Positions 41,998 to 63,999 of a DNA stretch of 64,000 nt are shown here, in pieces. The position numbers and the translations under genes are program-made. This DNA is from a virus (taxonomy: Duplodnaviria; Caudoviricetes): IMG/VR virus record IMGVR_UViG_3300042868_009047; one strand, written 5' to 3'. The notes beneath the pieces were generated by a model, which worked only from the letters and a program-made list of their open reading frames with translations, did not search any database and had not been told where the DNA came from. Each line of letters begins with the position of its first letter. Position 1 is the first letter of the stretch.

Positions 41998-44751
41998 ATG
42001 AAAAAATTATTATACATCGCCCCACACCTTTCCACAGGCGGTTTACCACAGTACTTAACTAAAAAAATTGAATTACTTAGAGATTCGTTTGACATATATG
42101 TTGTTGAATGGTCTAACCACACTGGTGGCGTGTTGGTTGTACAAAGAGATAAAATAACTTCAATGGTTGCGCCAGATAAATTCTTTACTCTGGAAGAAAA
42201 TAAAATGCAACTGATTGATATTATTAACCAGGTGTCTCCAGACATTATACACTTGGAAGAAATCCCTGAATATTTCATGGATTTTGACGTTGCAAAAGAA
42301 ATTTACAAAAAAGATCGTAATTATGTTATCGTAGAAACTTCTCACGATTCATCATATGATGCGACACAAAAGAAATTTTACCCAGACAAATTTATGTTTG
42401 TATCTGATTGGCAAATTAAATTATTTGAATCAATTGATATCCCAAAAGTTTTGGTTGAATATCCTATTGAATATAAACAAAGACCAAATAGAGAAAATGC
42501 GTTAAGAGATCTTAATTTAGATCCTAATAAAAAACACGTATTACACGTTGGTTTGTTCACGCCAAGAAAAAATCAAAAAGAATTTTTTGAATATGCTAAG
42601 TCTTTACCTGATTATGTTTTTCACTCTGTCGGAAATCAAGCTGGTAACTTTGCTCATTACTGGGAACCTTTAATGGTTGATAAACCAAGTAATGTTGTTT
42701 GGCACGGTGAAAGAAAAGATGTTGATAGGTTCTATCAAGCAATGGATCTATTCTTATTCACGTCCAGAGGTACTGATAATGATAAAGAAACTATGCCATT
42801 GGTTATTCGTGAGGCAATTTCCTGGAACTTACCAATTTTAATTTACAACCTTGGTGTTTATTTGAATTACTTTGATAAATTTGATAACGTAAAGTATTTA
42901 GATTTCTCTGATTTTAATAAAAACTGTTCCTTAATTACCGAAGTTCTTGAAAACGGTATAGAGTTTCAACCAAAAACAAAAGAAATTAACAGGGAAAAAG
43001 AAGCTATTATAATTTCTACATACCCAACAACAAAAAGCGTATTTGATACAACAGTTGAATGTATTTTAGCTGCTAAAAAAACTGGTAGAAAAGTTATTTT
43101 AACCTCACATTTACCAATTTCCCCAGATTTACAGAGTTTAGTTGACTATTGTATATATGACAAAAATAATATTCTAACCAAACACACATTCTACTCACAG
43201 AGTAGATACAGCGAAGCTGATTTCTTTGCGTTTGTTAATCTAAGAGGTGAAGGTAATGATATTTATCATGGTCCAACTTGTTACACAAACTATTATAACG
43301 GTGCCGCATTAGCAAATGAGTTAGGTATGGAAAAAGTTTATTTCCTTAACTATGATTACGTGCTTAAAAATGATTCGTATTTAGATAACATTTCAAATGT
43401 ATTGGATACAAAATCTGCTTATTTTGGTGATATGCCAAATAATCCAGAAGGTCATTCTGTTACAACGTTTTTTATGGGTATTAAACCATCATTTTATTTA
43501 GATACCGTTGAACCAATTTTTGATGTCCATGGTTACGAGAATTTGAGAACCAAATGGGGTTCGTTCAGTAATGGGTATGAGAATATGATGTATTTTGCTT
43601 TTAAAGATAAAATGAATCAGATTGAATTAGTTGGTGAAGAGCAATTTAAAACTGAGGTAGCAACTAATTTCCACCATAGAGATTATTCTAGAGTGGAGTA
43701 CTTTACAGTATTACCGACAAATATACCAAATTCATTTGCTGTTTACTTCCAAGTATCAAATTCAGTTGATAGTAGAATTGTTAATATCACTATTAATAAA
43801 AATGGATCTTTACTTAAAGAAGAGCAAATTACGGTAACAGGTAGAGGTGCTTGGTATAATATGGTTGGTTATAATTTAGATGAAAATGCTGAATATACGG
43901 TTGACTATCAATCATTTGATAAAGATACACAGCAGTTTATTGAGAGTAAATTTATAAAGATTGATAATAATTATATCACAAATGTTTTACCGAATAACGG
44001 TAATTTTGATTATAAAGGTGATCACAATAGTGTTAATTTATTAACTAACAACGATAGTTCAAAACCTAAAATTAGAATTGTGCATTTAGTTACTGAACCA
44101 TCAAGTAACCCCAAAGAGTTACGATCAGCGTTTTCTTTAAAAGATTTTGCTAATACTTTTGATAACGTTGAGTACTATCAAAAAGTTAATTTAATCTATA
44201 AGGATTTACCACCAGCTGATAATTGCAATAGACCACAGGATGTCGCATCTGAACCAGGATACTTCAAGCTGTCCCCAGGGCACTATGGTTGTTTCTTAGC
44301 GCATAAAAATGGTATTACTTTACCAGACAACAACCAATATGATTTTATCTTAGTATTTGAGGGTGATGTTATCATTGACGCACCTTATCAAGAATTATAC
44401 GATAATCTAATCAGATGGTCACAATTGGCTAAAGAAGAAAACGTGGATATGGTTGGTTTTGGTAACTACTGTGCCGAAAGATATAGTGGTGAACGCGAAG
44501 ATTTAATGCTTAATTTAAGTATTTTTGCGCCAGCACAATCCTACTTGATTAATAGAGAAAAATTACCTACTTTTGTGGAAAGATTTGAAACTTGTAAATG
44601 GGATGCATTTGATTTGTGGATGACCAAGGTTGCTAAATTACATGGTGCTATGGCTAACAAGATCTATACTAAACATTTACCAGGTTATTCTATCGTAGAT
44701 AGAAAAGATAAAAATAAAGATAACGACTACGCAGCAATTTTTACTAATTAA
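41998..44751 (+). CDS. Multi-domain glycosyltransferase (GT4-like N-terminus, unknown middle, GT25-like C-terminus)
   Basis: N: HLSTGGLPQY, HVGLFTPRKNQ, DLFLFTS...ETMPLVIREA. C: GHYGCFLAH...LVFEGDV. Confidence 0.75.
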   Translation: MKKLLYIAPHLSTGGLPQYLTKKIELLRDSFDIYVVEWSNHTGGVLVVQRDKITSMVAPDKFFTLEENKMQLIDIINQVSPDIIHLEEIPEYFMDFDVAKEIYKKDRNYVIVETSHDSSYDATQKKFYPDKFMFVSDWQIKLFESIDIPKVLVEYPIEYKQRPNRENALRDLNLDPNKKHVLHVGLFTPRKNQKEFFEYAKSLPDYVFHSVGNQAGNFAHYWEPLMVDKPSNVVWHGERKDVDRFYQAMDLFLFTSRGTDNDKETMPLVIREAISWNLPILIYNLGVYLNYFDKFDNVKYLDFSDFNKNCSLITEVLENGIEFQPKTKEINREKEAIIISTYPTTKSVFDTTVECILAAKKTGRKVILTSHLPISPDLQSLVDYCIYDKNNILTKHTFYSQSRYSEADFFAFVNLRGEGNDIYHGPTCYTNYYNGAALANELGMEKVYFLNYDYVLKNDSYLDNISNVLDTKSAYFGDMPNNPEGHSVTTFFMGIKPSFYLDTVEPIFDVHGYENLRTKWGSFSNGYENMMYFAFKDKMNQIELVGEEQFKTEVATNFHHRDYSRVEYFTVLPTNIPNSFAVYFQVSNSVDSRIVNITINKNGSLLKEEQITVTGRGAWYNMVGYNLDENAEYTVDYQSFDKDTQQFIESKFIKIDNNYITNVLPNNGNFDYKGDHNSVNLLTNNDSSKPKIRIVHLVTEPSSNPKELRSAFSLKDFANTFDNVEYYQKVNLIYKDLPPADNCNRPQDVASEPGYFKLSPGHYGCFLAHKNGITLPDNNQYDFILVFEGDVIIDAPYQELYDNLIRWSQLAKEENVDMVGFGNYCAERYSGEREDLMLNLSIFAPAQSYLINREKLPTFVERFETCKWDAFDLWMTKVAKLHGAMANKIYTKHLPGYSIVDRKDKNKDNDYAAIFTN

Positions 44752-45344
44752 TGTATTTACACGGCCACAAATTAAACACAAAACACCCAGATTTCGATAT
44801 CGAATGGTATAAATGTGTTTTCAAAGAGATTTGGTTAGATCACGAATACTCAAGATATGGTGTTGAAATTGAAAAAGGTGATGTGGTTGTCGATTGCGGG
44901 GCGAATGTTGGTTTTTTTACCAATTACGCCTTAAACCACAGAAAAGCAAAACACGTTTATTCATTTGAATGTGAGGAAACATTTGTTGAGTGTTTAAAAG
45001 AAAACACAAATGAAAATGTTACCATAACACAAGCGTTTGTTTCAGATAGGGATGAAGTTGGTCATTATAACATAGAAAAAATGTTACATGATTTTGGTTT
45101 AACACACATTGATTTTATTAAAGTGGATATTGAATGGTGGGAATACCCATTATTAATTAACATGTCTAATGAGACGATGAAGAGAGCAAACAAATGGGTA
45201 ATAGAATTACACAGCATTTACGAAAATTATGATAAAATAATGGACATAATTGAAAAATTCACATTAAATGGGTTTGATATCAATTATGAGCAAGTGCATA
45301 AAGAAACAAACCTAGCATTATTATACGTAAAAAAAAGAATATGA
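44751..45344 (+). CDS. FkbM-family SAM-dependent methyltransferase
   Basis: VVVDCGANVGFF, IDFIKVDIE. Confidence 0.85.
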   Translation: MYLHGHKLNTKHPDFDIEWYKCVFKEIWLDHEYSRYGVEIEKGDVVVDCGANVGFFTNYALNHRKAKHVYSFECEETFVECLKENTNENVTITQAFVSDRDEVGHYNIEKMLHDFGLTHIDFIKVDIEWWEYPLLINMSNETMKRANKWVIELHSIYENYDKIMDIIEKFTLNGFDINYEQVHKETNLALLYVKKRI

Positions 45345-46291
45345 AAATTTGCCAAGTACATCCAGGATGCGGAATCCCAGTTCCACCACCTAATTGGGGC
45401 GCTGTAGAAAAAATAGTATGGGAGTTTACCCAGAATTTAAGATTATTAGGACATGAGGTTGATATTAAATACGCCAATGAGATTAAACCAGGTGAATATG
45501 ATGTTGTTCACGTACACATGGCCAATTTATGTCATTTTTTACACGATAGGGGTATACCATACATTTATCAATTACATGATCACCATGCGTACTACTACGG
45601 TAAAGGTTCTTACGTGTTTAACCAAAATAACAGAGCTATTCTCGAATCACAGGTTTCTTTGATGCCTGGTAAATTCTTGGTACCTTATTTTGAAACAGAA
45701 AAAGCTGTTTATTTTTCACATGGTGTTAATACAGATTTTTATCACCCATCAGATGTTAGGCCAAAAGAACATAAATTATTATGTTTAGCAAATAATGGTT
45801 TAGCTGGTATGGATGGTTATGATAGAAAAGGTTTTGGTTTTGCAATCCAAGCCGCAATGTCGAGAAATCTACCAATCACAATTGCTGGACCAAGAAATAA
45901 CCAGAATTTCTTTAATGAAAACCCATGGGTTAATGGTTACACAAAATTATCAATCGAATGGGAGCCAAATCAAGATGAATTAGTTGATTTGTATCATAGA
46001 CACACAATCTTCATGCATCCTTCTGAATTAGAAGCTGGGCACCCTAATTTAACGATATTAGAGGCCGCTGCATGTGGTTTACCCATTAACGGGGCCATTG
46101 AGATTGAAACTGATTTTAACGGTATGTGGAGAGCACCTAGAAAGGTTACAGACATTGTACGTGGTTTGGACGACATCATCACCAACTACGATACATATCG
46201 TGAAAGAGCTATTCAACATGCCGAGTCCTTATCATGGTATAACAGATCAAAAGAATTATTAGAGGTTTACAAACAATACACACAGCGATGA
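45341..46291 (+). CDS. GT4 family glycosyltransferase
   Basis: PPPNWGAVE, HGVNTDFY, HPSELEAGHPNLTILEAAACGLP. Confidence 0.85.
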   Translation: MKICQVHPGCGIPVPPPNWGAVEKIVWEFTQNLRLLGHEVDIKYANEIKPGEYDVVHVHMANLCHFLHDRGIPYIYQLHDHHAYYYGKGSYVFNQNNRAILESQVSLMPGKFLVPYFETEKAVYFSHGVNTDFYHPSDVRPKEHKLLCLANNGLAGMDGYDRKGFGFAIQAAMSRNLPITIAGPRNNQNFFNENPWVNGYTKLSIEWEPNQDELVDLYHRHTIFMHPSELEAGHPNLTILEAAACGLPINGAIEIETDFNGMWRAPRKVTDIVRGLDDIITNYDTYRERAIQHAESLSWYNRSKELLEVYKQYTQR

Positions 46292-47913
46292 GAATATTAG
46301 GGCTTTCAGCTGGATCACATTCTTGTGGTATAAGTTTAATAGAAGATGGTAAAATAATTTTTTCTTTAGAAGAAGAAAGGTGTACAAGGGTAAAAGTTTA
46401 CAAAGATTTTTACGGTAATTATTTTAGGTACCCAAAACAATCAATTATTGAGGCTATTAATAAATTTAATTTAGACCTAAATTCAGTTGATTACATAACA
46501 AGTTACTATCCTAAACATGAGGTTAAAATATTTTGGAAAAGTATGAATCTAGGTGTATTCCCAGAACAAAAATTTATATTTATTGACCACCATGATTCAC
46601 ATGCAGCCACTGCTTATTATATGAGCGGTTTTGATGAGGACACACTTGTTGTTACTATGGATGCTAGCGGTGGACAATATAGCGCAAAATATTTTATTGG
46701 TACCAATGGTAGTTTAGATTATATTGACGGTTTAGATTTAACAAAAAAATCTTTTGGCCATTATTACGCAATGTTAACAGAATTTTTAGGTTTTAGACGA
46801 CTTAAAGATGAAGGTAAAGTTGTTGGTATGGCAGCTCATGGTAGACATGACACTGTTTCATACCAAGCTTTTAATGAATGTATTAAAATTGAGGGTATAC
46901 ACACAGACAAGGATCAATCAGATGTATTATTTGGTCAACTGTACCTTGATTTTTATACCAAGTACTATAAAACATTAGGTTCTAGGGTATTTTTTGGTAC
47001 AAAAGCTGACTTAGCTTACACAGGACAACTTGTCTTTGAAGAAAAAATATTACAGGTGTTTAACAACTTACATAACATGTATCCTAATGTTAAAAAAGTT
47101 GCTGTAGCTGGTGGTGTTTTTGCTAATGTAAAATTAAATAAACGTATTAATGAACTATACTGGGTTGATGAAATGTTTGTGGCACCCCCAATGGGTGACG
47201 AAGGTTGTCCACTTGGTTGTGTTTTATTAGTGCATAAAATGTTTACACCAGACTTTAAACCATTTAGATTGGACAACATGTTTATGGGTACCTCATATAC
47301 AGATGTTGAGGTTGGTGAACATTATTGGGACCAAAATAAATTCTCAAGAGAAATATTTACACCAGAATTAACCGCAAAATATTTAGCAGAAGGTAAAATT
47401 ATGGGTGTTTTTAACGGTAGATATGAACACGGTCCAAGAGCTTTGGGTAATCGTAGTATCATTGGTGAGGTAACTAATCCAGATACTTACGATAAGCTCA
47501 ATAATAAACTCCAAAGAAACGATTTCATGCCATTTGCACCAGCTGTTATGGAAGAACATGCTGATACGATCTTTAATGTCACTAAATCAAGATATACAGC
47601 TGAATTTATGACCATGTTGTATGATACAAGACCTGAATGGGCTGACAGAATACCAACAGTTGTTCACCCCAAGGATAAAACAGCTAGAATACAAATAGTA
47701 ACTAAAACAAGCAACCCAACATTTTATAAAATATTGGATGAATACAATAAAATAACTGGCGTACCCGTTCTTTTAAATACATCATTTAATGTGCATGAAG
47801 AACCGATTGTATGTCACCCGAACGAAGCGTTTAACCATTTAGAAAACGATGTCGTTGACTTAATAATAATAAACAATTTTATCTATAAAAAATATGAAGG
47901 AAATATTAACTAA
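46288..47913 (+). CDS. O-carbamoyltransferase (NodU/CmcH/TobZ family)
   Basis: EEER..R.K, HHDSHAA, GGVFANVKLN, GPRALGNRSI, FMPFAP, TARIQ, LLNTSFN. Confidence 0.93.
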   Translation: MRILGLSAGSHSCGISLIEDGKIIFSLEEERCTRVKVYKDFYGNYFRYPKQSIIEAINKFNLDLNSVDYITSYYPKHEVKIFWKSMNLGVFPEQKFIFIDHHDSHAATAYYMSGFDEDTLVVTMDASGGQYSAKYFIGTNGSLDYIDGLDLTKKSFGHYYAMLTEFLGFRRLKDEGKVVGMAAHGRHDTVSYQAFNECIKIEGIHTDKDQSDVLFGQLYLDFYTKYYKTLGSRVFFGTKADLAYTGQLVFEEKILQVFNNLHNMYPNVKKVAVAGGVFANVKLNKRINELYWVDEMFVAPPMGDEGCPLGCVLLVHKMFTPDFKPFRLDNMFMGTSYTDVEVGEHYWDQNKFSREIFTPELTAKYLAEGKIMGVFNGRYEHGPRALGNRSIIGEVTNPDTYDKLNNKLQRNDFMPFAPAVMEEHADTIFNVTKSRYTAEFMTMLYDTRPEWADRIPTVVHPKDKTARIQIVTKTSNPTFYKILDEYNKITGVPVLLNTSFNVHEEPIVCHPNEAFNHLENDVVDLIIINNFIYKKYEGNIN

Positions 47914-49165
47914 CGAATACAATAATACGGAAATCTTAAGAAAAGATTTTAAAGAACCATCTAACTCATTTATCATACATTTTGTGAATGGTGCTTTGTG
48001 TGAGATTAAAGGACCAATATCTAAAAAATACAAGGTTGTTTTTTCTGATAATAAAACTGGACACGTACATCACGTATCTGAGATTACAAATAACATGTGG
48101 ACTAAAAGTGCTATCGAATATTTCATCGAATGGAATATTAAGGTGTATGAATTAGAAACTGATGAGTTGGTTTTTGAACACACATACGACTGTAAGGACA
48201 AAAGAGTTTATATCCACTTAGATAGCTCCGCTGTTGGTGATACAATGGCTTGGTTCCCTTATGTGGATGAGTTTAGAAAGAAACACGGTTGTAAAGTATT
48301 GTGTTCAACATTCCATAATGAATGGTTTGAAAAGATGTACTCAGAAATTGAATTTGTTAAACCTGGTACGCCTGTGATTGATTTGTACGCTATGTATAAA
48401 ATCGGTTGGTTCTATGATGACAAAGAAGTTGTTAAATCTAAAATCCCAATCGACTTTAAACAACACCCGTTACAAGAAAGTAGTTCATGTATTTTGGGTC
48501 TTGATTACGAAGAAGTTAAACCAAAGGTATTTGTACCTGATGAACCTAGTAGGATTGACGGTAAATACGTAATTATTGCACCTCACGCATCTGCGCACGC
48601 TAAGTATTGGAATCATCCAGGTGGGTGGCAAGGTGTTATCGATCATTTAAATGATAATGGTTATAAGGTTGTTATGATTACATCAGAAAAATTAGGTGAT
48701 GCTTGGCATGACTCCAAACTTGGTGGTACATTAAAGAACGTTATCGATAAAACTGGTGGTCACATTGATCTTGTTGACCGAATGATTGATATTAAACATG
48801 CGTCAGCTTTTATTGGCCTTGGTAGTGGGTTAAGTTGGTTATCTTGGGCTATTGGAACACCTACGGTTCTTATTTCAGGGTTTAGTTATCCTTTATCAGA
48901 GTTTGCTGATTGCGAAAGAATTTTTAATCCAGATGTTTGTAACGGATGTTTTAACAGACATTGGTTAAATCCAGGGGATTGGGAATGGTGCCCAGATCAT
49001 AAAGACACACCAAGACATTTTGAATGTTCTAAAACTATTAAAACTCAAACAGTTATAGACGCTGTTGATAGACTTTTAAGTAAAAAAGAAGAGATTATTC
49101 AAGAAGTTACTGAAGAGGTCTTAGAAAAAAAAGAGAAAAAAAGTTTTTTTGGTAAGTTTTTTTAG
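47894..49165 (+). CDS. TibC/Aah-type autotransporter O-heptosyltransferase homologue
   Basis: AVGDTMAWFPYVDEFRKKHGC, KYWN..GW, FIGLGSGLSWLSWA.GTP.VLISGFS; four Cys (CNGC...WCP...FECS) in the iron-finger arrangement. Confidence 0.85.
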   Translation: MKEILTNEYNNTEILRKDFKEPSNSFIIHFVNGALCEIKGPISKKYKVVFSDNKTGHVHHVSEITNNMWTKSAIEYFIEWNIKVYELETDELVFEHTYDCKDKRVYIHLDSSAVGDTMAWFPYVDEFRKKHGCKVLCSTFHNEWFEKMYSEIEFVKPGTPVIDLYAMYKIGWFYDDKEVVKSKIPIDFKQHPLQESSSCILGLDYEEVKPKVFVPDEPSRIDGKYVIIAPHASAHAKYWNHPGGWQGVIDHLNDNGYKVVMITSEKLGDAWHDSKLGGTLKNVIDKTGGHIDLVDRMIDIKHASAFIGLGSGLSWLSWAIGTPTVLISGFSYPLSEFADCERIFNPDVCNGCFNRHWLNPGDWEWCPDHKDTPRHFECSKTIKTQTVIDAVDRLLSKKEEIIQEVTEEVLEKKEKKSFFGKFF

Positions 49166-49174: not shown

Positions 49175-49201
49175 TTGCTATAATGTAAGATAGCAACAAC
49201 T

Positions 49202-49771
49202 ATGTTTTATAAATATGATGAAAAACAACTCAGATTTGTTAAGAACAAACTGGGTATAAGAATAGCATTGGGAACCACCATTTTATTGATGGTTGGTTCC
49301 TTTTTTCTTGGCAGGTATTTCCAATCAGATGCGTTGGATAATATTGAAAATGAGGTTAAAATAGTTAACCTTCAAAAAGAAAAAGATAAATTTTCAAAAG
49401 AAAGATTTATTAGTGAATTAAAAAACAAAAAGGTTAAATTCCCTTACATCGTAATGGCCCAGGCTATTATGGAAAGTGGTTTGGGTAAAAGCAATTTATT
49501 TAAAGAAAACCATAATTTGTTTGGGATGCGTTTGGCTAGAAGTAGGATGACAACTGCCGCAGAATCAAAAAATAATTTTGCTTATTATAATAAGTGGCAA
49601 GATTGTGTGTTGGATATGGCTTATTTCCAAGCTTCTTATTTAAACGGAATTAACACCGAAGAAAAATACCTACTATATTTAGGTGCTAATTATGCAGAAT
49701 CACCAACTTACATAACAAAATTAAAAAGTGTTATAAACAATCAAAATCTAAAATCGTATTTTAATGAGTAA
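49202..49771 (+). CDS. Glucosaminidase-domain (GH73-like) peptidoglycan hydrolase with N-terminal TM
   Basis: AQAIMESG...NNLFG-like (HNLFGM), YAESPTY; hydrophobic segment at about aa 21-40. Confidence 0.8.
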   Translation: MFYKYDEKQLRFVKNKLGIRIALGTTILLMVGSFFLGRYFQSDALDNIENEVKIVNLQKEKDKFSKERFISELKNKKVKFPYIVMAQAIMESGLGKSNLFKENHNLFGMRLARSRMTTAAESKNNFAYYNKWQDCVLDMAYFQASYLNGINTEEKYLLYLGANYAESPTYITKLKSVINNQNLKSYFNE

Positions 49772-50597
49772 AGAAAAATTAAAAGATATACTCTCCACCC
49801 CAACTTATTGTGGGCAAGAACAATATCTTATAGCGAAAATAACAAGATATCTTAGTGAAAGTAATTTAGATTATGTTGTTGATGAACATGGCAATATCTA
49901 TGTAACAAAGGGTGTTGCTGATCACTACCCTTGTATTGTTGCCCATACAGATTCAGTCCATAGGATTGTTGAAATGGATATTCTTGAACGTGAGGATGAT
50001 GAGGATATTTTATACGCTGTTGAAAAGGGTACAAATAAAAGAACTGGGTGTGGCGGGGATAATAAGGCTGGTGTATACGTTTGCTTGGAATTACTTGAAC
50101 GTGTTGAGATTCTTAAAGCCGCTTTTTTTGTTTCAGAAGAATATGGTTGCTTTGGTTCAATACTTTCAGATGAGACATTCTTTGAAAACGTTGGATACAC
50201 ACTTCAATTTGATGCACCAGAAAATGATTGGGTAACCCATTATTGTAATGGTGTTAAACTATTTGATGAGGAAGGTGATTTTTATAAAACAATCCAACCA
50301 ATACTAGAAGATTACATGGGTGATTATTCTTTGGGTAGACACCCGTACACAGACGTAAGCGTTTTAGGAGCTTTTCATGACTTTTCTTGTATCAACTATT
50401 CAGTTGGTTATTACAACATGCATTCAAACATGGAGTATGTCAGCGTTGGTTTTACACAACAAGCCAAAAATATCGCTTTAGAGATCATTTCATCCCTGGG
50501 TAATATAAAGTATCCGTTTATAGATGAAACCGTCAGAATCGACAAAGAAAAGGCCAGAGAGAGGGCTTTAAAATCACTTAATGGTTTAAGAAAATAA
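49764..50597 (+). CDS. Zn peptidase, M20/M28/M42-like
   Basis: IVAHTDSV, GGDNKAG, SEEYGC.GS. Confidence 0.85.
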   Translation: MSKEKLKDILSTPTYCGQEQYLIAKITRYLSESNLDYVVDEHGNIYVTKGVADHYPCIVAHTDSVHRIVEMDILEREDDEDILYAVEKGTNKRTGCGGDNKAGVYVCLELLERVEILKAAFFVSEEYGCFGSILSDETFFENVGYTLQFDAPENDWVTHYCNGVKLFDEEGDFYKTIQPILEDYMGDYSLGRHPYTDVSVLGAFHDFSCINYSVGYYNMHSNMEYVSVGFTQQAKNIALEIISSLGNIKYPFIDETVRIDKEKARERALKSLNGLRK

Positions 50598-50622
50598 AAA
50601 AAGGGGTTTTAAACCCCTTTCT
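50596..50622. terminator. Bidirectional terminator between convergent genes
   Basis: AAAGGGG-ttttaaa-CCCCTTT flanked by A/T tracts. Confidence 0.8.
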
Positions 50623-50628
50623 TATTTA

Positions 50629-56600: not shown

Positions 56601-59600
56601 ACGATCTACTTAAACCGCTTGTTCCGTTTGTTCCTGAAGAACCTGAAGATGCTGAAGACCCAGACAATTGTGACAAACCTGAGTTACCAGCTGTACCACT
56701 TGAACCAGAAGTTCCTGAAGTTGCTGAAGATCCCGAAGAACCACTTAACGCTGAAGAACCAACTGTACCTGCTGAACCTGAAGTTGCTGATGTACCAGAA
56801 GTTCCTGAAGAACCACTATTTGCACTAGCACCATTTGTACCAGTGGTACCAGTTGATCCTGAACTACCACTTGTACCTGAACTTCTACTTAAAGCAGAAG
56901 CACCATCTGTACCATTTGTTCCTGAAGACCCAGAAGTTCCAGAAGAACCCGAAGATCTACTCAAACCAGAAGTACCGTTAGTACCACTTGATCCTGAAGT
57001 TGCCGAAGAACCACTTAATTGTGATAAACCTGAAGCACCCGCAGTACCGTTTGTACCTGTAGATCCGCTTGATCCTGATGTTCCAGCTGAACCAGAACTT
57101 CTACTTAAACCTGATTGACCATCAGTTCCTGAAGTACCAGTCGATCCTGAAGAACCAGATGTACCTGAAGTATCACTTAATGCTGATTGGCCATCAGTAC
57201 CTGAGGTACCCGATGTACCAGCTGTTGCTGAAGAACCTGACAATCTTGATGAACCGTTTGTACCAGCGGTACCAGTTGTTCCTGAAGAACCACTTGATGC
57301 GCTTGACCCACTTAATTGTGACAATCCCGATAAACCAGCAGTACCATTTGTACCCGTAGAACCTGAAGACGCTGAAGTACCGCTCGATCCACTATTTGCG
57401 GATTGACCACTTGTACCAGCGCTACCTGAAGATGCTGATGAACCTGATGAACCTGATGTTCCTGAAGTTGCACTTGATCCAGCACTACCTGAAGATCCGC
57501 TTAACTGAGACAATCCTGATGTACCAACCGTTCCTGATGTTGCTGAAGAGCCTGATGTAGCTGAGCTACCTGAGTTAGCTGAAGCACCTGAAGTTCCGTT
57601 AGAACCTGTAGATCCTGAAGAACCAGATGTTCCGCTTGATCTACTTAATGATGATTGGCCATCAGTTCCTGAAGTACCAGTTGAACCTGATGAACCAGAA
57701 GTTCCTGAAGTATCACTTAACGCTGATTGACCGTCCGTACCTGAAGTACCTGACGTTCCAGCTGTTGCTGAAGACCCACTTAATCTACCCAATCCTGAGG
57801 TACCATTTGTACCTGAAGTTGCGGAAGATCCTGAAGTTGCGGAAGAACCACTATTTGCTGAAGCACCTGAAGTTCCGTTAGAACCAGTCGATCCAGAAGA
57901 ACCCGATGTTGCTGAAGAACCAGCAGAACCACTTAACGCTGAAGAACCTGCTGTTCCTGAAGTCCCAGAAGAACCTGCGCTACCAGCTGAACCACTTAAC
58001 GCTGAAGAACCAACTGTACCAGACGTACCAGAAGATGCTGATGAACCTGAAGTTCCAGCAGAACCTGAAAGTTGACTTAAACCTGAAGTACCGATTGTAC
58101 CTGAAGTAGCTGAGCTACCTGAAGTAGCTGAAGAACCGCTATTTGCGCTAGCACCGTTAGTACCGTTTGTACCTGTACTACCTGAACTACCTGATGTACC
58201 AGAACTTCTACTTAATGAAGACTGACCATCTGTACCATTTGTACCTGAAGAACCCGAAGTTCCTGAAGAACCTGAAGATCTACTCAAACCTGAAGTACCA
58301 TTTGTTCCTGAAGAACCGCTAGATGCTGAAGAACCGCTTAATTGAGATAATCCTGAGTTACCAGCTGTTCCATTTGAACCGCTTGTACCAGAAGTCGCTG
58401 AAGAACCAGCAGATCCACTTGAACCACTTAATGAACTTAAACCAGATGTACCCGCAGTACCACTTGTAGCAGAGCTACCAGCTGTTGCTGAAGAACCTGA
58501 ATTAGCAGATGCTCCGTTTGTACCGTTTGTACCCGTAGAACCACTTGAACCAGATGTACCAGAACTTCTACTTAACGCTGATGCACCATCCGTACCCGCT
58601 GATCCTGAAGAACCAGAAGAACCTGATGTACCACTTGTTGCTGAAGTACCCGCTGAGCCTGAGCTACCACTTAATTGTGATACTCCAGATGTTCCAGCTG
58701 TTCCTGATGTTGCGGAACTACCAGCTGTTGCTGAAGAACCACTATTTGAACTTAATCCTGACGTACCGTTTGTTCCAGTTGATCCTGAAGAACCAGCAGT
58801 TCCTGATGAACCTGAAGATCTACTCAAACCAGATTGTCCGTCAGTTCCTGAAGTTCCCGTAGAACCTGATGATCCAGAAGTTCCTGATGTATCACTTAAA
58901 GCTGACTGACCATCTGTACCAGATGTACCAGAGGTTCCAGCTGTTGCTGAAGATCCGCTTAATCTACCCAATCCTGAGGTACCCGCAGTACCACTTGTAG
59001 CTGAACTACCAGAAGTTGCTGAAGAACCTGAATTTGCACTTGCACCTGAAGTACCAGTAGAACCTGTTGAACCACTTGATGCAGATGTTCCTGAAGAACC
59101 ACTATTTGAAGATAAACCAGATGTACCGTTTGTACCAGTTGATCCTGAAGAACCACTAGAACCTGACGTACCGCTTGATTTACTTAATGCTGAAGCTCCA
59201 TCAGTACCAGATGTACCACTTGAACCTGAAGAACCAGATGTACCACTTGTTGCAGATGTTCCAGCAGAACCAGAAGAACCTGATAATTGAGACAATCCAG
59301 ATGTACCAACTGTACCTGAAGTGGCAGATGAACCAGAGGTTGCTGATGAACCGCTATTTGCTGAAGCGCCATTTGTACCGTTTGATCCAGTTGAACCACT
59401 TGAACCAGATGTTCCTGAAGATCTACTTAACGATGATTGACCATCAGTTCCTGAAGTTCCTGTTGATCCTGAAGAACCACTTGTTCCAGAAGTATCGCTT
59501 AAAGCTGATTGGCCATCTGTACCTGAAGTACCTGATGTACCAGCCGTTGCTGAAGAACCTGATAATCTACCTAAACCTGAAGTACCGTTTGTACCTGAAG

Positions 59601-62600
59601 TTGCGGAAGAACCAGATGTAGCTGAACTACCAGAGTTTGCCGATAAACCGCTTGTACCAGCTGATCCTGAAGAACCACTTGTTCCCGCTGTTGCTGAAGA
59701 ACCAGCTGAACCACTAGAACCACTTAACGCTGAAGAACCAACTGTACCTGCCGAACCTGAAGTTGCTGATGTACCGCTTGTTGCAGAAGAGCCACTATTT
59801 GAAGATAAACCAGATGTACCGTTTGTACCTGTTGATCCTGAACTTCCACTTGTACCTGAACTTCTACTTAAAGCAGATGCTCCGTCAGTACCAGCTGATC
59901 CTGAAGAACCACTTGATCCTGATGTACCTGAAGTCGCAGATGTACCAGCAGATCCAGAAGAACCTGAAAGTTGACTTAATCCTGATGTACCAATTGTACC
60001 ACTTGTTGCCGAACTACCAGAAGTTGCAGATGATCCAGAATTAGCACTTAATCCTGATGTTCCAGCTGAACCAGTACTTCCTGAAGAAGCTGATGTACCC
60101 GCTGAACCAGAAGATGCGCTTAAACCACTAGAACCTGATGTTCCTGAAGTCGCAGAAGAACCTGCGCTACCAGCAGAACCGCTTAATGCTGAACTACCTG
60201 AAGTACCAGTTGTACCGCTTGTTGCAGAACTACCAGCTGTTGCTGAAGAACCACTATTCGAACTCAACCCTGAAGTACCGTTTGTACCAGTTGAACCACT
60301 TGAACCAGAAGAACCTGAAGTTCCTGAAGATTTACTTAATGCTGATTGACCATCAGTTCCTGAAGTTCCAGTTGAACCACTTGATCCAGATGTACCAGAT
60401 GTATCACTTGTAGCAGAAACACCATCTGTACCTGAAGTACCTGATGTACCAGCTGTTGCTGAAGAACCGCTTAGTCTTGACAAACCTGAAGTACCGATTG
60501 TACCTGATGTAGCTGAAGAACCTGAAGTTGCTGATGAACCACTATTTGCGCTAACACCTGATGTACCAGCAGTACCTGTAGATCCAGAAGAACCTGAAGT
60601 TGCTGAACTACCACTTAATGCGCTAGCCCCTGAAGTTCCAGCCGAACCACTTGAACCTGAAGTTGCTGATGTTCCAGCTGAACCAGAACTTGCTGATAGA
60701 CCTGAAGACCCTGCGGTTCCTGAAGTTGCTGATGTACCAGCCGAACCTGAACTACCGCTTAATGCTGAGCTACCTGATGTACCAGTTGTACCACTTGTAG
60801 CTGAACTACCGCTTGTTGCAGATGATCCGCTATTAGCCGATAAACCTGAAGTACCATTTGTACCAGTTGATCCTGAAGATCCACTTGATCCAGATGTACC
60901 TGAAGATCTACTTAAACCTGATTGACCATCAGTTCCTGATGTACCTGTAGAACCACTTGATCCAGAAGTTCCTGAAGTATCACTTAACGCTGATTGACCG
61001 TCCGTACCTGAAGTACCTGATGTACCAGCTGTTGCTGAAGACCCACTTAATCTACCCAATCCTGAAGTACCATTTGTACCTGAAGTCGCTGATGAACCAC
61101 TTGTTGCTGAGCTACCAGAGTTTGCACTAGCACCTGAAGTACCAGCAGAACCTGTTGATCCTGAAGAACCAGAAGTCGCAGAAGAACCTGCGCTACCACT
61201 TAACGCTGAACTACCAGAAGTACCTGTTGTTCCAGAAGTAGCAGATGAACCTGCGCTCCCCGAAGATGCGCTCAATCCTGAGCTACCAGCTGTTCCTGAA
61301 GTAGCAGAGCTACCTGAAGTTGCCGAAGATCCGCTTAATTGAGATAAACCATTTGTACCAGCAGTACCAGTTGTACCAGAAGATGCTGATGTACCGCTTG
61401 AACCACTATTTGCAGCTAAACCTGAGGTACCATTTGTACCAGAAGTTGCTGATGAACCAGAAGAAGCTGAAGTTCCTGAAGAAGCAGATGCTCCTGAAGA
61501 TCCATTAGAACCTGATGAACCTGCGGTTCCTGAAGTTGCCGATGAACCAGAAGATGAACTTAATCCTGAAGACCCTGCGGTTCCAGAAGTTGCTGAAGTA
61601 CCCGCTGAACCACTCAATGCAGAACTACCAGATGTACCTGTTGTACCTGAAGTTGCTGATGAACCAGAAGTTGCTGAAGAACCCGAGTTAGCGCTTAGGC
61701 CTGACGTACCATTTGTACCAGTTGATCCTGAAGATCCGCTAGAACCAGATGTACCACTTGATTTACTCAATGCAGAAGCACCATCAGTTCCTGAAGTACC
61801 AGTCGATCCTGAAGAACCAGATGTACCTGAAGTATCACTTAAAGCAGATTGACCATCAGTACCTGAGGTACCCGATGTACCAGCTGTTGCTGAAGAACCA
61901 GACAATCTTGATAAACCTGAAGTACCATTTGTACCTGAAGTAGCAGAAGAACCAGACGATGCCGAAGTTCCTGAGGAAGCTGAAGCTCCTGAAGAACCAG
62001 CTGATCCAGCTGAACCTGATGTTCCAGCTGTTGCTGAAGAACCACTTGAAGCACTTAAACCTGAAGATCCAGCTGTTCCTGAGGTAGCCGAACTACCTGA
62101 AGTTGCTGAAGATCCGCTTAATGCACTTAAACCACTCGTACCATTTGTACCTGAAGTAGCTGAACTACCAGACGATGCTGATGTTCCTGAAGATGCCGAA
62201 GCTCCTGAAGAACCTGATGATCCCGTAGAACCTGCGGTTCCTGATGTTGCTGAACTACCAGAACTTGCACTCAACCCTGATGAACCTGCGGTTCCAGAAG
62301 TTGCTGAAGATCCTGATGTTGCTGAACTACCACTATTTGAAGATAATCCTGATGTACCGTTTGTACCTGATGTAGCTGAGCTACCTGATGTACCTGATGA
62401 ACCAGAACTATTACTATTTCCACTCGAACCTGCGGTCCCTGAAGAAGCTGAACTTCCTGAAGAACCTGATGTACCGCTAGTCGCAGATGATCCACTTGTA
62501 GCAGATGATCCCGAATTAGCAGCCAATCCTGAGGTACCATTTGTACCTGAAGTTGCTGATGAACCAGATGATGCCGAAGTTCCTGAAGAAGCTGAAGCAC

Positions 62601-63999
62601 CTGAAGAACCATTAGAACCAGTTGAACCTGATGTACCGCTTGACGCTGATGTACCTGAAGAAGCGCTTAAACCTGAACTTCCAGCTGTTCCTGACGTAGC
62701 AGAGCTACCTGAAGTTGCTGAAGAACCACTATTTGAACTCAATCCCGAAGTACCGTTTGTTCCACTTGTAGCAGAAGAACCAGAACTTGCAGATGTACCT
62801 GAAGAAGCTGAAGCGCCTGAAAAACCAGCTGATCCACTTGTACCTGAAGTACCTGAAGAAGCTGAACTTCCAGATGATGCACTTAAACCAGAACTTCCAG
62901 CCGTTCCTGAGGTAGCGGAGCTACCTGAAGTTGCTGAAGAACCCGAGTTAGCGGCCAACCCTGATGTACCATTTGTACCTGAAGTAGCTGAACTACCAGA
63001 CGATGCTGATGTTCCTGAAGAAGCTGACGCACCACTTGACCCAGCTGAACCTGAAGATCCTGAGGTCGCAGAAGTTCCTGAAGAACCAGCTGAACCCGAA
63101 CTACCTGAATTAGCAGCTAAACCTGAAGTACCATTTGTACCTGAAGTAGCTGAACTACCAGACGATGCTGATGTTCCTGAAGAAGCGGAAGCCCCTGATG
63201 AACCAACAGAACCTGTTGAACCTGAAGTTCCACTTGTTGCTGAAGACCCAGCAGAAGAACTTAAACCTGAAGATCCAGCCGTACCACTTGTAGCAGAGCT
63301 ACCTGAAGTTGCTGATGAACCACTATTACCTGATAAACCACCAGTACCATTTGTTCCTGAAGAACCAGAAGATCCTGATGTAGCTGAAATAGCTGAAATA
63401 CCATCAGCACCATCAACCCCACTTGAACCTGAAGTTCCTGATGAACCAGATGTTTTACTTGAACCAGCTAAACCACTTGTACCTGTTGTACCCGAAGTTG
63501 CTGATGAACCACTTGTTGCTGAAGACCCTGAATTAGCTGATAAACCACTTGTACCAGCTGTTCCTGAAGTTGCAGATGAACCAGATGATGCTGATGTTCC
63601 TGAAGATGCTGATGCCCCTGATGAACCTGATGTACCAGCTGTTCCACTTGTAGCTGAAGAACCTGATGTTGCAGATGTACCTGAAGAAGCTGAAGCTCCA
63701 CTTGAACCTGCCGAACCACTAGTTGCAGATGTACCTGAAGAAGCTGAACTTCCAGATGATGCACTTAAACCAGAACTTCCAGCCGTTCCTGACGTTGCAG
63801 ACGAACCAGAAGAAGCCGAAGAACCCGAATTAGCAGCTAAACCTGAGGTACCGTTTGTACCTGAAGTTGCTGATGATCCTGATGTAGCTGAACTACCGCT
63901 TAAAGCAGAAGCCCCACTTGTACCTGATGAACCTGAACTACCTGATGTAGCTGAAGTACCTGAAGTTGCTGATGAACCACTATTTGCACTCAAACCTGA
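50629..63999 (-). CDS. Giant Ser/Gly/Thr triplet-repeat fibre protein with C-terminal peptidase S74 intramolecular chaperone; 5'-truncated (>4450 aa)
   Basis: Frame is open to the window edge. C-terminus: LGINNASPSYTLDVSG, SDERVK, GVIAQEV, VAYSNLVGLLIEAIK. Confidence 0.9.
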   Translation of the reverse strand, partial: SGLSANSGSSATSGTSATSGSSGSSGTSGASALSGSSATSGSSATSGTNGTSGLAANSGSSASSGSSATSGTAGSSGLSASSGSSASSGTSATSGSAGSSGASASSGTSATSGSSATSGTAGTSGSSGASASSGTSASSGSSATSGTAGTSGLSANSGSSATSGSSATSGTTGTSGLAGSSKTSGSSGTSGSSGVDGADGISAISATSGSSGSSGTNGTGGLSGNSGSSATSGSSATSGTAGSSGLSSSAGSSATSGTSGSTGSVGSSGASASSGTSASSGSSATSGTNGTSGLAANSGSSGSAGSSGTSATSGSSGSAGSSGASASSGTSASSGSSATSGTNGTSGLAANSGSSATSGSSATSGTAGSSGLSASSGSSASSGTSGTSGSAGFSGASASSGTSASSGSSATSGTNGTSGLSSNSGSSATSGSSATSGTAGSSGLSASSGTSASSGTSGSTGSNGSSGASASSGTSASSGSSATSGTNGTSGLAANSGSSATSGSSATSGTSGSSGSSASSGTAGSSGNSNSSGSSGTSGSSATSGTNGTSGLSSNSGSSATSGSSATSGTAGSSGLSASSGSSATSGTAGSTGSSGSSGASASSGTSASSGSSATSGTNGTSGLSALSGSSATSGSSATSGTAGSSGLSASSGSSATAGTSGSAGSAGSSGASASSGTSASSGSSATSGTNGTSGLSRLSGSSATAGTSGTSGTDGQSALSDTSGTSGSSGSTGTSGTDGASALSKSSGTSGSSGSSGSTGTNGTSGLSANSGSSATSGSSATSGTTGTSGSSALSGSAGTSATSGTAGSSGLSSSSGSSATSGTAGSSGSNGSSGASASSGTSASSGSSATSGTNGTSGLAANSGSSGTSASSGTTGTAGTNGLSQLSGSSATSGSSATSGTAGSSGLSASSGSAGSSATSGTTGTSGSSALSGSAGSSATSGSSGSTGSAGTSGASANSGSSATSGSSATSGTNGTSGLGRLSGSSATAGTSGTSGTDGQSALSDTSGTSGSSGSTGTSGTDGQSGLSRSSGTSGSSGSSGSTGTNGTSGLSANSGSSATSGSSATSGTTGTSGSSALSGSSGSAGTSATSGTAGSSGLSASSGSAGTSATSGSSGSAGTSGASALSGSSATSGSSGSTGTAGTSGVSANSGSSATSGSSATSGTIGTSGLSRLSGSSATAGTSGTSGTDGVSATSDTSGTSGSSGSTGTSGTDGQSALSKSSGTSGSSGSSGSTGTNGTSGLSSNSGSSATAGSSATSGTTGTSGSSALSGSAGSAGSSATSGTSGSSGLSASSGSAGTSASSGSTGSAGTSGLSANSGSSATSGSSATSGTIGTSGLSQLSGSSGSAGTSATSGTSGSSGSSGSAGTDGASALSRSSGTSGSSGSTGTNGTSGLSSNSGSSATSGTSATSGSAGTVGSSALSGSSGSAGSSATAGTSGSSGSAGTSGLSANSGSSATSGSSATSGTNGTSGLGRLSGSSATAGTSGTSGTDGQSALSDTSGTSGSSGSTGTSGTDGQSSLSRSSGTSGSSGSTGSNGTNGASANSGSSATSGSSATSGTVGTSGLSQLSGSSGSAGTSATSGTSGSSGSSGTSGTDGASALSKSSGTSGSSGSSGSTGTNGTSGLSSNSGSSGTSASSGSTGSTGTSGASANSGSSATSGSSATSGTAGTSGLGRLSGSSATAGTSGTSGTDGQSALSDTSGTSGSSGSTGTSGTDGQSGLSRSSGSSGTAGSSGSTGTNGTSGLSSNSGSSATAGSSATSGTAGTSGVSQLSGSSGSAGTSATSGTSGSSGSSGSAGTDGASALSRSSGTSGSSGSTGTNGTNGASANSGSSATAGSSATSGTAGTSGLSSLSGSSGSAGSSATSGTSGSNGTAGNSGLSQLSGSSASSGSSGTNGTSGLSRSSGSSGTSGSSGTNGTDGQSSLSRSSGTSGSSGSTGTNGTNGASANSGSSATSGSSATSGTIGTSGLSQLSGSAGTSGSSASSGTSGTVGSSALSGSAGSAGSSGTSGTAGSSALSGSAGSSATSGSSGSTGSNGTSGASANSGSSATSGSSATSGTNGTSGLGRLSGSSATAGTSGTSGTDGQSALSDTSGTSGSSGSTGTSGTDGQSSLSRSSGTSGSSGSTGSNGTSGASANSGSSATSGSSATSGTVGTSGLSQLSGSSGSAGSSATSGTSGSSGSSASSGSAGTSGQSANSGSSGTSASSGSTGTNGTAGLSGLSQLSGSSASSGSSGTTGTAGTNGSSRLSGSSATAGTSGTSGTDGQSALSDTSGTSGSSGSTGTSGTDGQSGLSRSSGSAGTSGSSGSTGTNGTAGASGLSQLSGSSATSGSSGTNGTSGLSRSSGSSGTSGSSGTNGTDGASALSRSSGTSGSSGSTGTTGTNGASANSGSSGTSGTSATSGSAGTVGSSALSGSSGSSATSGTSGSSGTAGNSGLSQLSGSSASSGSSGTNGTSGLSRSSGSSGTSGSSGTNGTDGASSLSRSSGTSGSSGSTGTNGTNGASANSGSSATSGSSATSGTAGTNGLSQLSGSSGSAGSSATSGTSGSNGTAGNSGLSQLSGSSASSGSSGTNGTSGLSRSSGSSGTSGSSGTNGTDGQSSLSRSSGTSGSSGSTGTVGTNGASANSGSSATSGSSATSGTIGTSGLGRLSGSSATSGTSGTSGTDGQSALSDTSGTSGSSGSTGSSGTDGASALSRSSGTSGSSGSTGTNGTVGSSNNSGSAGTSGSSATSGTVGTSGVAANSGISVTSGTSGTSGSSGSKGTDGTAGVSGASASSGSSATSGSTGTNGTAGNSGLSQLSGSSASSGSSGTTGTAGTNGSSRLSGSSATAGTSGTSGTDGQSALSDTSGTSGSSGSTGTSGTDGLSGLSRSSGSSGTAGSSGSTGTNGTSGLSGASASSGSSATSGSTGTNGTAGNSGLSQLSGSSASSGSSGTNGTVGTSGLSRLSGSSATAGTSGTSGTDGQSGLSRSSGSAGTSGSSGSTGTNGTSGNAGNSGLSSTSGSSATSGSTGTNGTAGNSGLSQLSGSSASSGSSGSSGTNGTSGLSRSSGSSGTSGSSGTNGTDGQSALSRSSGTSGSSGSTGTNGTSGLSSNSGSSASSGSSGSSGTNGTAGLSRSSGSSGTSGSSGTNGTDGQSSLSRSSGTSGSSGSTGTNGTAGNSGLSQLSGSSASSGSTGTAGTAGLSRLSGSSGSSGSSGTNGTDGQSGLSRSSGTAGSSGSTGTAGNNGASNNSGSSGTSGSNGTSGNAGNIGASALSGSSGSTGTNGTTGIIGGNGLSANSGSSASSGSTGTNGTSGLSRSSGSSGTSGSSGTNGTDGASSLSRSSGTSGSSGSTGTAGTDGISRIAGFAGTSGTSATSGTIGTVGNNGASNNSGSSGTSGSSGSTGTNGTAGNSGLSQLSGSSASSGSSGSTGTAGTNGLAVGSGISTLSGSSGSTGTNGTNGNAGNIGASANSGSSGSTGTNGTTGIIGGNGLSANSGSSASSGSTGTNGTSGLSGLSGSSGTSGSSATSGLAGSSGSSGTEGTTGTTGFRGQSGFSGTSGLSGSAGSTGSNGTSGNAGNIGASALSGSSGSTGSNGTGGVAGLNGISALSGTSGSSGTAGNSGLGGSSGTSGSSGSSGTAGASGSSRLSGSSATSGSNGTSGNAGNIGASANSGSSGSTGTNGTTGNAGANGNSAVSGTSGSTGTAGTNGLPVPSGISQLSGSSGSTGTNGTNGNAGNIGASANSGSSGSTGTNGTTGNNGNSGNSGLSGTNGSTGTNGNNGANGVSGLSGLSGSNGTAGTSGASGGNGVSGLSGLSGSNGSNGTNGNAGGNGNSGLSGTSGSTGSTGTTGNAGGNGNSAVSGSSGSSGTGGTNGLPVPSGISQLSGSSGSSGTNGTSGNAGTIGLSRLSGSSGSTGTNGTSGNNGNSGNSGNSGLSGTNGSNGTNGNNGANGVSGLSGISGSNGTAGTSGASAGNGVSGLSGSSGSTGTSGTTGNAGAIGLSRLSGSSGSTGTNGTNGNNGANGNSGNSGLSGSNGTAGTSGASGGNGVSGLSGISGSNGTAGTNGNNGANGNSGNSGLSGSTGTNGTTGNNGNAGGNGNSAVSGSSGSSGTGGTNGLPVPSGISQLSGSSGSTGTNGTSGNNGNNGNSGLSGLSGSNGSNGTNGNNGGVGLGGVSGVSGTNGSTGTGGANGLNGGNGNSGVSGVNGSNGTNGAAGNNGNNGANGTSGVAGNNGNNGAGGLSGVNGSNGTNGAAGNNGNNGAGGLSGVNGSNGTNGAAGNNGNNGAGGLSGANGTNGTTGVAGTSGQSINGTSGISGGSFTNQPDYLVRTTSATQVQSVSFLKVDTTSNRLGINNASPSYTLDVSGTIYASADVIAFSDERVKDNVVTISDALNKVRSMRGVNYTRNDVEDKSLKMGVIAQEVQKVIPEVISTRESDGYLGVAYSNLVGLLIEAIKDLDKEIQDLKK
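51079..63999 (-). repeat. ~12.9 kb coding repeat in triplet register (G/A)-X-(S/N/A)
   Basis: Translation parses as GSS ATS GTN GTS GLS ANS...; higher GC than the rest of the window. Confidence 0.97.

Follow-up and report, generated by a model that had tools for sequence, protein, structure and literature searches.

In the window analysed here, the whole of a 64,000 nucleotide stretch of the virus genome held in IMG/VR as IMGVR_UViG_3300042868_009047, an operon of five genes for sugar transfer and decoration faces a single giant gene for a collagen-like fibre, and one of the five encodes a homologue of TibC, a protein O-glycosyltransferase of E. coli. The probable explanation is that this cassette serves for cytoplasmic O-glycosylation of the neighbouring fibre, ahead of the trimerisation that the C-terminal S74 domain of the fibre would drive, with the TibC-family enzyme priming and two further glycosyltransferases, a GT4-type enzyme and a 917 aa protein called GT917 here, extending the sugar. 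This reading is carried by the anatomy of the genes, by the membership of the first enzyme in the TibC family, by the triplet periodicity and S74 domain of the fibre, and by the linkage of the enzymes to such fibres in other phages.

The TibC homologue, its partner enzymes and the fibre

The five genes lie on the + strand downstream of the terminator of the capsid gene and are translationally coupled, with overlaps of 1, 4, 4, and 20 nt. In order, and with the domains of GT917 listed beneath it, they are:

41998-44751, + strand: GT917, three-domain glycosyltransferase of 917 aa (Pfam GT1, E=2e-12)
41998-42987, + strand: GT917 residues 1-330, GT-B domain (Pfam GT1)
43000-43677, + strand: GT917 residues 335-560, GT-A domain, glycogenin/GT8-like (model and Foldseek)
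43690-44037, + strand: GT917 residues 565-680, beta-sandwich (model)
44044-44748, + strand: GT917 residues 683-917, GT25-like domain (weak Pfam GT25 match and Foldseek)
44751-45344, + strand: FkbM-family methyltransferase (Pfam PF05050, E=6e-10), accessory and missing from many related loci
45341-46291, + strand: GT4-type glycosyltransferase (Pfam GT1/GT4 families), one of a core trio and present in all informative TibC loci
46288-47913, + strand: NodU/CmcH-type O-carbamoyltransferase (Pfam PF16861, Carbam_trans, E=3e-58; PF02543, E=2e-33), accessory
47894-49165, + strand: TibC/AAH-family (BAHT) protein O-glycosyltransferase homologue of 423 aa (Pfam GT9 match; PDB 4rap, E=2.5e-58)

The 423 aa product of the last gene is, judging by its sequence, a member of the TibC family that keeps the catalytic set. 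Its match to TibC (4rap) spans residues 66-394 (329 residues, 45% identity), and a search of the PDB with this protein found TibC-type structures only, the lipopolysaccharide (LPS) heptosyltransferases WaaC and WaaF being undetected at E<=1. The roles of the TibC residues are taken from the structure paper (PMC4358343), where Asp110 is catalytic, T226, K230, R286, and W305 contact the donor, and Cys339, Cys342, Cys358, and Cys370 make up the iron finger. G115-D116 of the phage protein aligns with G109-D110 of TibC, D116 taking the place of the catalytic Asp110. The donor contacts are S233, K237, R296, and W315, with a conservative change of Thr to Ser in the first, and the finger cysteines are C349, C352, C366, and C378. 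D116, the four donor contacts, and the four cysteines are invariant in 21 phage homologues. The stereoselectivity residue of TibC, P300, is replaced by Gly (G310 here), and it is always Gly in the 21 homologues. No autotransporter passenger is found among the neighbours of the TibC homologues, which are phage fibres instead.

The model of GT917 residues 322-682 (predicted local distance difference test, pLDDT, 92.8) has a GT-A fold closest to that of glycogenin (GT8; 6eql, Foldseek E=6e-6), followed by the beta-sandwich. The match of residues 683-917 to Pfam GT25 (PF01755; E=1e-3, 19.5 bits) is under the 24-bit cut-off, and the model of this C-terminal part has a pLDDT of only 69.8; its top Foldseek match is COLGALT1, the human galactosyltransferase for collagen hydroxylysine (9evk; E=2.4e-7, TM 0.52-0.58), with Mimivirus R655 also matched. 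Only the folds are informative, GT917 profiles having found nothing useful by sequence in the PDB. Forms of GT917 of about 663 aa in other phages do not have the GT25-like domain. Since GT917 has three catalytic domains, the operon holds five glycosyltransferase domains in all, together with the GT4-type enzyme and the TibC homologue. In one related locus (L072:5052-8432) an FkbM methyltransferase is fused N-terminally to the GT917 homologue (1127 aa), which ties the accessory enzyme to the core.

The facing fibre open reading frame (ORF), at 50629-63999 on the - strand, is open at the window edge and has 4456 aa within it, in a stop-free frame of 13.4 kb. This ORF is real rather than a chance frame, given the length of that frame, the C-terminal domain kept in many contigs, and the homologous fibres in dozens of loci. 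Its features are:

51085-63999, - strand: collagen-like region of 1435 (G/A)-X-Y triplets (phase tracking and composition; Pfam Collagen, E=1e-45 to 2e-58)
50902-51084, - strand: non-repeat neck between the triplets and S74, kept among related fibres (alignments A1 and A2; PHROG tail-fibre families, to E=8e-31)
50632-50901, - strand: Peptidase_S74 intramolecular chaperone (Pfam PF13884, E=3e-14; Ser-Lys dyad, SDERVK)

Serine makes up 33.8% of the fibre, Gly 25.7%, Thr 14.0%, and Ala 9.5%; Pro is at 0.2% and Asp, Glu, Lys, and Arg together are below 3%, so the Pro or hydroxyproline or the charge pairs that would stabilise a triple helix are essentially lacking. Residues 1-4305 are in a single unbroken triplet phase, and there are 2126 Ser and Thr in the part of the protein within the window. 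The first triplet position is Gly in 77% of cases, Ala in 15.5%, and another residue in 7%; position X is mostly Thr (36%), Ser (34%), or Leu (12%), and position Y is mostly Ser (68%), Asn (11%), or Ala (9%). The underlying DNA contains tandem units that have diverged from each other and range in length from 72 to 369 nt, every one a multiple of 3. The S74 domain lies within the last 151 residues, with SDERVK at residue 4367, and its S78 and K83 are invariant in alignment A2; self-cleavage is predicted at Ser4367 (codon 50899-50901). The C-terminus matches many PHROG tail-fibre families, and by its sequence the protein is a collagen-like member of the tail-fibre class.

In complete relatives of the fibre the N-terminal domains are short (45-110 residues) and the lengths range from 1,500 to 2,700 aa, which shows that fibre length is highly variable. 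The rise of a collagen triple helix is 0.286 nm per residue, and the part of this fibre within the window would possibly be about 1.2 µm long if it forms one. Many of the IMG/VR contigs (L001-L080) stop inside the fibre gene or shortly ahead of it. Short-read assemblies are evidently broken by the repeat, and such fibres are therefore probably under-counted in viromes.

An earlier note on this DNA, made from the sequence alone, had placed an operon after the capsid gene and facing a giant ORF, and a check of the ORFs together with Pfam found all of the genes at the positions claimed. Its description of a multi-glycosyltransferase of 917 aa, a TibC/Aah homologue with a GD catalytic site and four-Cys iron finger, and a facing protein of more than 4450 aa rich in Ser, Gly, and Thr agrees with the features described above. 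It had also envisaged a mucin-like glycan coat on the virion; the fibre is collagen-like with an S74 chaperone, not mucin-like.

Linkage of enzymes and fibres among phages

Searched with the TibC homologue, IMG/VR yielded 237 loci; 80 of them were retrieved, and the forward counts rest on these. GT917, GT4, and TibC are present together in every one of them where the flank allows, and this trio is the core of the module. The methyl and carbamoyl transferases that the earlier note had counted as part of the system are present in the operon but are accessory rather than core, being missing from many loci, and the carbamoyltransferase is found only where the module follows the capsid gene.

The module has two arrangements. 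In close relatives (70-96% TibC identity) it lies after the capsid gene and is convergent with the fibre, as in the window. In a larger group (61-68% identity), whose members likewise have Gp23 capsids, a single strand carries the fibre, GT917, GT4, and TibC in that order, and the genes for tail sheath, baseplate hub, and tape measure follow immediately. A strict detector found a collagen-like ORF in 11 of 13 and in 25 of 32 informative loci. Inspection accounted for the remainder: one fibre, of 495 aa, has two brief GSSGTS runs, others are classical collagens of the GYQGPQ or G/P/T-rich kind, some contigs break off within the fibre gene, and the fibres of L045 and L058 are beta-roll repeats. 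With these included, a collagen-like or otherwise repetitive fibre adjoins the trio at essentially all informative loci. G-[ST]-S triplets are the motif common to all of the neighbouring fibres.

As a reverse control the S74 C-terminus was used for the scan, and 79 other fibres were retrieved. The trio is present with 6 of the 7 Ser/Thr-rich collagen-like S74 fibres, as against 0 of the 72 others (Fisher 2.5e-8), which include 8 collagen-like fibres that are not Ser/Thr-rich. Relatives of the capsid gene with at least 9 kb downstream either have both the trio and the fibre (3 cases) or have neither (25 cases); Flavobacterium phage immuto, with the same head module, likewise has neither.

The linkage to a fibre is kept not only in the two gene orders but also in three distant phage lineages, two of them with fused trio genes. 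In Microcystis phage Mel-JY01 (42% TibC identity) a single protein of 1226 aa has TibC fused to a GT1 domain and to the middle domain of GT917, and there is an unannotated G-T-S collagen-like ORF just upstream of its gene. The huge phage LR756501 (41% identity) has a 743 aa ORF in which GT4 is joined to TibC; its neighbours are a GT917 homologue with permuted domains and a protein containing runs of G-[ST]-S. The earlier note had proposed to check whether TibC-like genes co-occur with such fibres and had named a lack of co-occurrence as a refutation; the two do co-occur, in the forward direction, in the reverse direction, and in distant lineages with fusions. A third record, LR756504 (36.5% identity), is different: its divergent TibC-like gene stands by itself, and neither GT917 nor a collagen match was found in its 636 kb, which indicates that the TibC family has other uses or substrates too.

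Two further observations concern the fibres of these distant phages. The Mel-JY01 fibre gene, of about 1,788 aa, is split by the ends of the linear record, its reading frame running on from one to the other (L081:2-3049; L248, PP395634.1, ~187.7 kb to the end), where Pro-rich ORFs are listed on the strand opposite the fibre that look like antisense artefacts of the repeat. LR756501.1, a 735-kb phage, has 72 Collagen-domain matches genome-wide, with several giant ORFs of 1,665 to 3,488 aa at ~100-124 kb and 400-421 kb.

The genes that accompany the trio differ with the chemistry of the fibre. Loci with Pro-containing fibres have three extra genes between the fibre and the trio, encoding a GT2-methyltransferase fusion, a DUF6445 protein, and a 2OG-FeII_Oxy_3 oxygenase. 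This 2-oxoglutarate (2OG) oxygenase, of the prolyl 4-hydroxylase (P4H) type, is present in 4 of 5 Pro-containing loci and in 0 of 46 Pro-poor loci. The loci with beta-roll fibres (L058 and L045) have a sulfotransferase (E=1e-18) beside the trio, which hints at sulfated glycans; an extra ORF there is GT9-like by eye only, Pfam having found no family. It would be difficult to account for an enzyme set that tracks the fibre chemistry in this way if the cassette did not act on the fibre.

Among the loci concerned, those at L040:2161-4052 and L072:2565-5043 have classical GYQGPQ collagen fibres and carry all three extra genes, the oxygenase included, as a phage collagen hydroxylation set. The S74 fibres of L058 (5384-7078) and L045 are made of GGGxxNTASGxxS beta-roll repeats, resembling adhesin heads, in place of triplets.

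The window itself is from a T4-like phage of about 31% GC, with terminase, portal, prohead protease, and Gp23 capsid genes in the region. Other features around the operon and fibre are:

40311-41891, + strand: major capsid protein, Gp23 family (Pfam PF07068, E=2e-73), context only, marking the end of the head module
41916-41942, no strand assigned: hairpin terminator at the boundary of the capsid gene and the glycosylation operon (11-bp stem, then a T run)
49202-49771, + strand: glucosaminidase with an N-terminal hydrophobic segment (Pfam PF01832, E=5e-17; hydropathy 1.81 at residue 18)
49764-50597, + strand: peptidase (phrog_4191)
50597-50623, no strand assigned: bidirectional hairpin terminator common to the converging operon and fibre gene (12-bp stem)
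3920-5620, + strand: tail-fibre-like protein of 566 aa, a second candidate substrate (PHROG tail-fibre and collagen-like matches at residues 180-238)

The operon was said in the earlier note to converge on the giant fibre. The two are indeed convergent, but the two unrelated genes at 49202-50597 intervene between TibC and the fibre. These are kept only in close relatives and are absent from the second arrangement; they are neighbours outside the conserved module, probably lysis or cell-wall enzymes. The glucosaminidase and phrog_4191 peptidase may work together in lysis, or conceivably in maturation of the fibre. In the protein encoded at 3920-5620, a motif scan found 57 consecutive residues of G-[ST]-[SN] triplets (4460-4630), the motif of the giant fibre, and this protein may also be modified.

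Proposed mechanism and alternative explanations

In the mechanism proposed, the soluble TibC-family enzyme would move an ADP-activated sugar onto Ser, and perhaps Thr, of unfolded or folding (G/A)-X-Y chains in the cytoplasm of the infected cell. GT4, together with the GT-B, GT8-like, and GT25-like catalytic domains of GT917, would then lengthen this to a short oligosaccharide, which in this phage the FkbM methyltransferase and the NodU-type carbamoyltransferase would decorate, with hydroxylation or sulfation as lineage-specific decorations in other phages. The S74 domain would trimerise the chains and then be removed by its own cleavage, so that the virion bears a collagen-like filament that is proline-free and coated with glycan. 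The glycan would probably stabilise or solubilise a helix lacking both proline and charge pairs, and the surface presented by the fibre would be this glycan, with shielding, adhesion, or mimicry as conceivable roles.

The adenine-contacting Arg is kept in the TibC homologue, which makes an ADP-sugar the likely donor, and from the sequence the donor is probably of this kind. The doubt expressed in the earlier note as to ADP-heptose was reasonable. A search of five related phage contigs, one of them 92% complete, did not find GmhA. Two close TibC homologues are on phage-like contigs binned in metagenome-assembled genomes (MAGs) of Flavobacteriales. In 101 genomes of the family of one of these MAGs, a likely host family, RfaE domain II (the ADP-heptose adenylyltransferase) is over the cut-off in none, while GlgC, for ADP-glucose synthesis, is over its cut-off in 37; the other MAG does have an ADP-heptose adenylyltransferase domain. 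ADP-glucose is thus as good a candidate as ADP-heptose, and heptose is not assured. Nucleotidyltransferase-like proteins beside zeta-toxin-like kinases, elsewhere in related phages, were considered as a source of donor and set aside, as they have no clear link to sugar activation. In two such cases (L164:627-4150 and L165:431-3266) a long protein with an N-terminal cytidylyltransferase-like domain adjoins a zeta-toxin-like P-loop kinase far from the module, a pair that could function in nucleotide-sugar activation.

The scan of bacterial genomes that returned the two phage-like contigs used narrow patterns, returned nothing else, and is uninformative on cellular relatives. The only named relative is a Flavobacterium phage, and the DNA of the window recurs in lake-water metagenomes across many studies. 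Contigs from RNA libraries match the operon, one (X24) exactly over 48137-48520 in the TibC gene and another (X22), from a 93% identical relative, from the 3' end of the capsid gene to the start of GT4. These are not counted as evidence of transcription, because DNA carry-over is possible and the contigs give no expression levels.

Several points weigh against glycosylation of the fibre by the cassette. There is no direct evidence for a glycan on any protein, and no donor-sugar pathway is visible. The thumb region of TibC aligns, but its tip, F265 and V266, is Ala and Trp in the phage protein. About 23% of the triplets do not have Gly at position 1 (15.5% have Ala), which makes a continuous triple helix less than certain. 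A 27-kb fragment (L087) has a Ser/Thr-rich collagen-like fibre with no TibC on the contig, and two complete phage genomes have collagen-like S74 fibres but neither TibC nor the trio, which indicates that the trio is not required by every collagen-like fibre. The co-occurrence counts are not phylogenetically independent, the signal coming from roughly four or five lineages. Lastly, the families of the enzymes, GT9, GT4, GT8, and GT25, are also families that build the cores of LPS and lipooligosaccharide (LOS), which bears on one of the alternatives below.

The alternative that survives best accepts that the fibre is glycosylated but would have it fold as a polyproline-II bundle, a beta-solenoid, or a disordered mucin-like brush in place of a triple helix. 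This is a minority possibility of some substance, given that Gly is at position 1 in just 77% of triplets, that Pro and charged residues are so scarce, and that the neighbouring fibre in L058 is a beta-roll repeat and not G-X-Y. The triplet phase is nevertheless unbroken over 4305 residues with strong Pfam Collagen matches, a trimerising S74 domain is at the C-terminus, and among the related fibres are some of classical GYQGPQ triplets, accompanied by a prolyl hydroxylase gene.

A bolder version of fibre glycosylation is also conceivable, although it must be thought rather unlikely. The fibre would be a micrometre-long "glyco-collagen" in which nearly every triplet carries an O-glycan begun by a TibC enzyme whose donor preference has shifted to an ADP-hexose such as ADP-glucose, and the glycan, rather than hydroxyproline, holds the proline-free triple helix together. 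Galactosyl-threonine is said to stabilise the triple helix in tubeworm cuticle collagen. Such filaments would widen the host capture radius in dilute lake water, and the cassette would co-evolve with the fibre, hydroxylases going with Pro-rich fibres and the sulfotransferase with the beta-roll.

Remodelling of the host envelope by the operon, the chief rival as to the target of the enzymes, would be a surprising outcome on the evidence available. Under this explanation the product would be an LPS/LOS-core-like or capsular oligosaccharide, serving for example to block superinfection, and the operon would be adjacent to the fibre because accessory genes insert there. GT9, GT4, GT8-like, and GT25-like enzymes are the classic LPS/LOS core glycosyltransferase families, and some secreted glycolipids, Nod factors among them, are known to carry methyl and carbamoyl groups; both points would fit. 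The GT9-type enzyme, however, is 45% identical to TibC and has the iron finger, with no LPS heptosyltransferase detected; the fibre linkage outlasts two gene orders and three distant lineages; the collagen-type prolyl hydroxylase joins only with Pro-containing fibres; and genes for a lipid carrier, a flippase, or a polymerase are lacking from the module. That the operon encodes no membrane segments had also been weighed as an argument here and was dropped, as the LPS core transferases are likewise soluble.

It is improbable to a similar degree that the enzymes act on other proteins, such as the capsid, the tail tube, or other virion or host surface proteins, with the fibre unmodified or a minor target: the operon is directly behind the capsid gene in the window, the protein at 3920-5620 bears the same G-[ST]-S stretch, LR756504 has its TibC-like gene with no collagen-like protein, and glycosylation of capsid and tail-tube proteins is known in mycobacteriophages (Freeman et al. 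2023, as summarised in PMC12619734), yet in the second arrangement the capsid gene is some 20 kb from the module (at ~58-59 kb and ~77-82 kb, respectively, in G003) with the fibre still adjacent, and capsid relatives that lack the fibre also lack the trio.

If glycosylation of the fibre by the cassette is correct, TibC-family O-glycosylation would not be limited to the virulence autotransporters of Proteobacteria but would be a widespread phage tool, represented by the 237 IMG/VR loci and by lake metagenomes from at least 15 studies. Bacteriophages would then make tailored collagen-like glycoprotein fibres, as giant viruses and spores do, and these would include the longest collagen-like regions described, at least 4305 residues against up to 1,158 in the Bcl proteins (PMC8968730). 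It would also explain giant repeat genes that break phage assemblies and are mis-annotated. For glyco-engineering and collagen-like biomaterials, the three to five genes would be attractive as a small system, soluble and cytoplasmic, that densely O-glycosylates a simple G-[ST]-S repeat. As the cultured Microcystis phage Mel-JY01 carries the same module, the idea is directly testable.

Comparison with known systems

The separate parts of this proposal are already known, in the glycosylation of virions of mycobacteriophages and giant viruses, in the glycosylated collagen-like filaments of Bacillus spores, and in the modification of autotransporters by BAHT enzymes. In the literature, as far as it was covered, there is no report joining a BAHT enzyme to phage collagen-like fibres and no description of the Mel-JY01 module.

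The closest enzymes are TibC and AAH of E. coli, which act on TibA and AIDA-I (PMC4358343). The phage enzyme resembles them in its catalytic Asp, its ADP-sugar contacts, and its 1Fe-0S four-Cys finger, and it too is a soluble cytoplasmic enzyme encoded beside a long, repetitive, Ser-rich surface protein, which in E. coli is hyper-glycosylated. It differs in lacking the thumb residues, in having Gly for P300, and in having no visible heptose pathway. Its neighbour is a collagen-like or beta-roll fibre with S74, rather than an autotransporter beta-helix, and it is always accompanied by two further glycosyltransferases, which would imply an oligosaccharide rather than single heptoses.

BclA, of the exosporium nap of Bacillus anthracis (PMC6222408, PMC8968730), is a trimeric G-X-Y filament that likewise contains hydroxy-amino acids, O-glycosylated with a short oligosaccharide that has a methylated terminal sugar, and it forms a hair-like layer. 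Its triplets are GPT, however, its rhamnose/anthrose glycans are made by unrelated enzymes, and it is found on a spore and not a virion.

Mimivirus, as outlined in PMC9614988 and in Luther 2011 (as cited in PMC8968730), encodes collagen-like proteins together with its own hydroxylating and glycosylating enzymes, and the fold of R655 resembles the C-terminus of GT917. This is a giant virus of eukaryotes with hydroxylysine-linked glucose, whereas the present case is a bacteriophage, the linkage presumably being to Ser/Thr through oxygen and the primer being of the TibC family. In mycobacteriophages, phage glycosyltransferases in the structural gene region likewise modify virion proteins, but the targets there are the C-termini of capsid and tail-tube subunits, the enzymes are of other families, and neither a giant repetitive fibre nor a BAHT enzyme is known to be involved.

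The chains of animal collagen need modification before they trimerise (PMC8968730). The likeness to their maturation lies in the P4H-type oxygenase found with Pro-containing G-X-Y fibres in related loci, and in the GT25-like domain, which is closest to COLGALT1. No hydroxylysine chemistry is implied in the phage, the window having no hydroxylase and a fibre with almost no Pro or Lys.

S74 tail fibres and spikes of the endosialidase type share with this fibre the C-terminal S74 domain with its Ser-Lys dyad and the matches to PHROG tail-fibre families. The shaft is where they part, being in this case a collagen-like polymer of thousands of residues, with linked modification enzymes.

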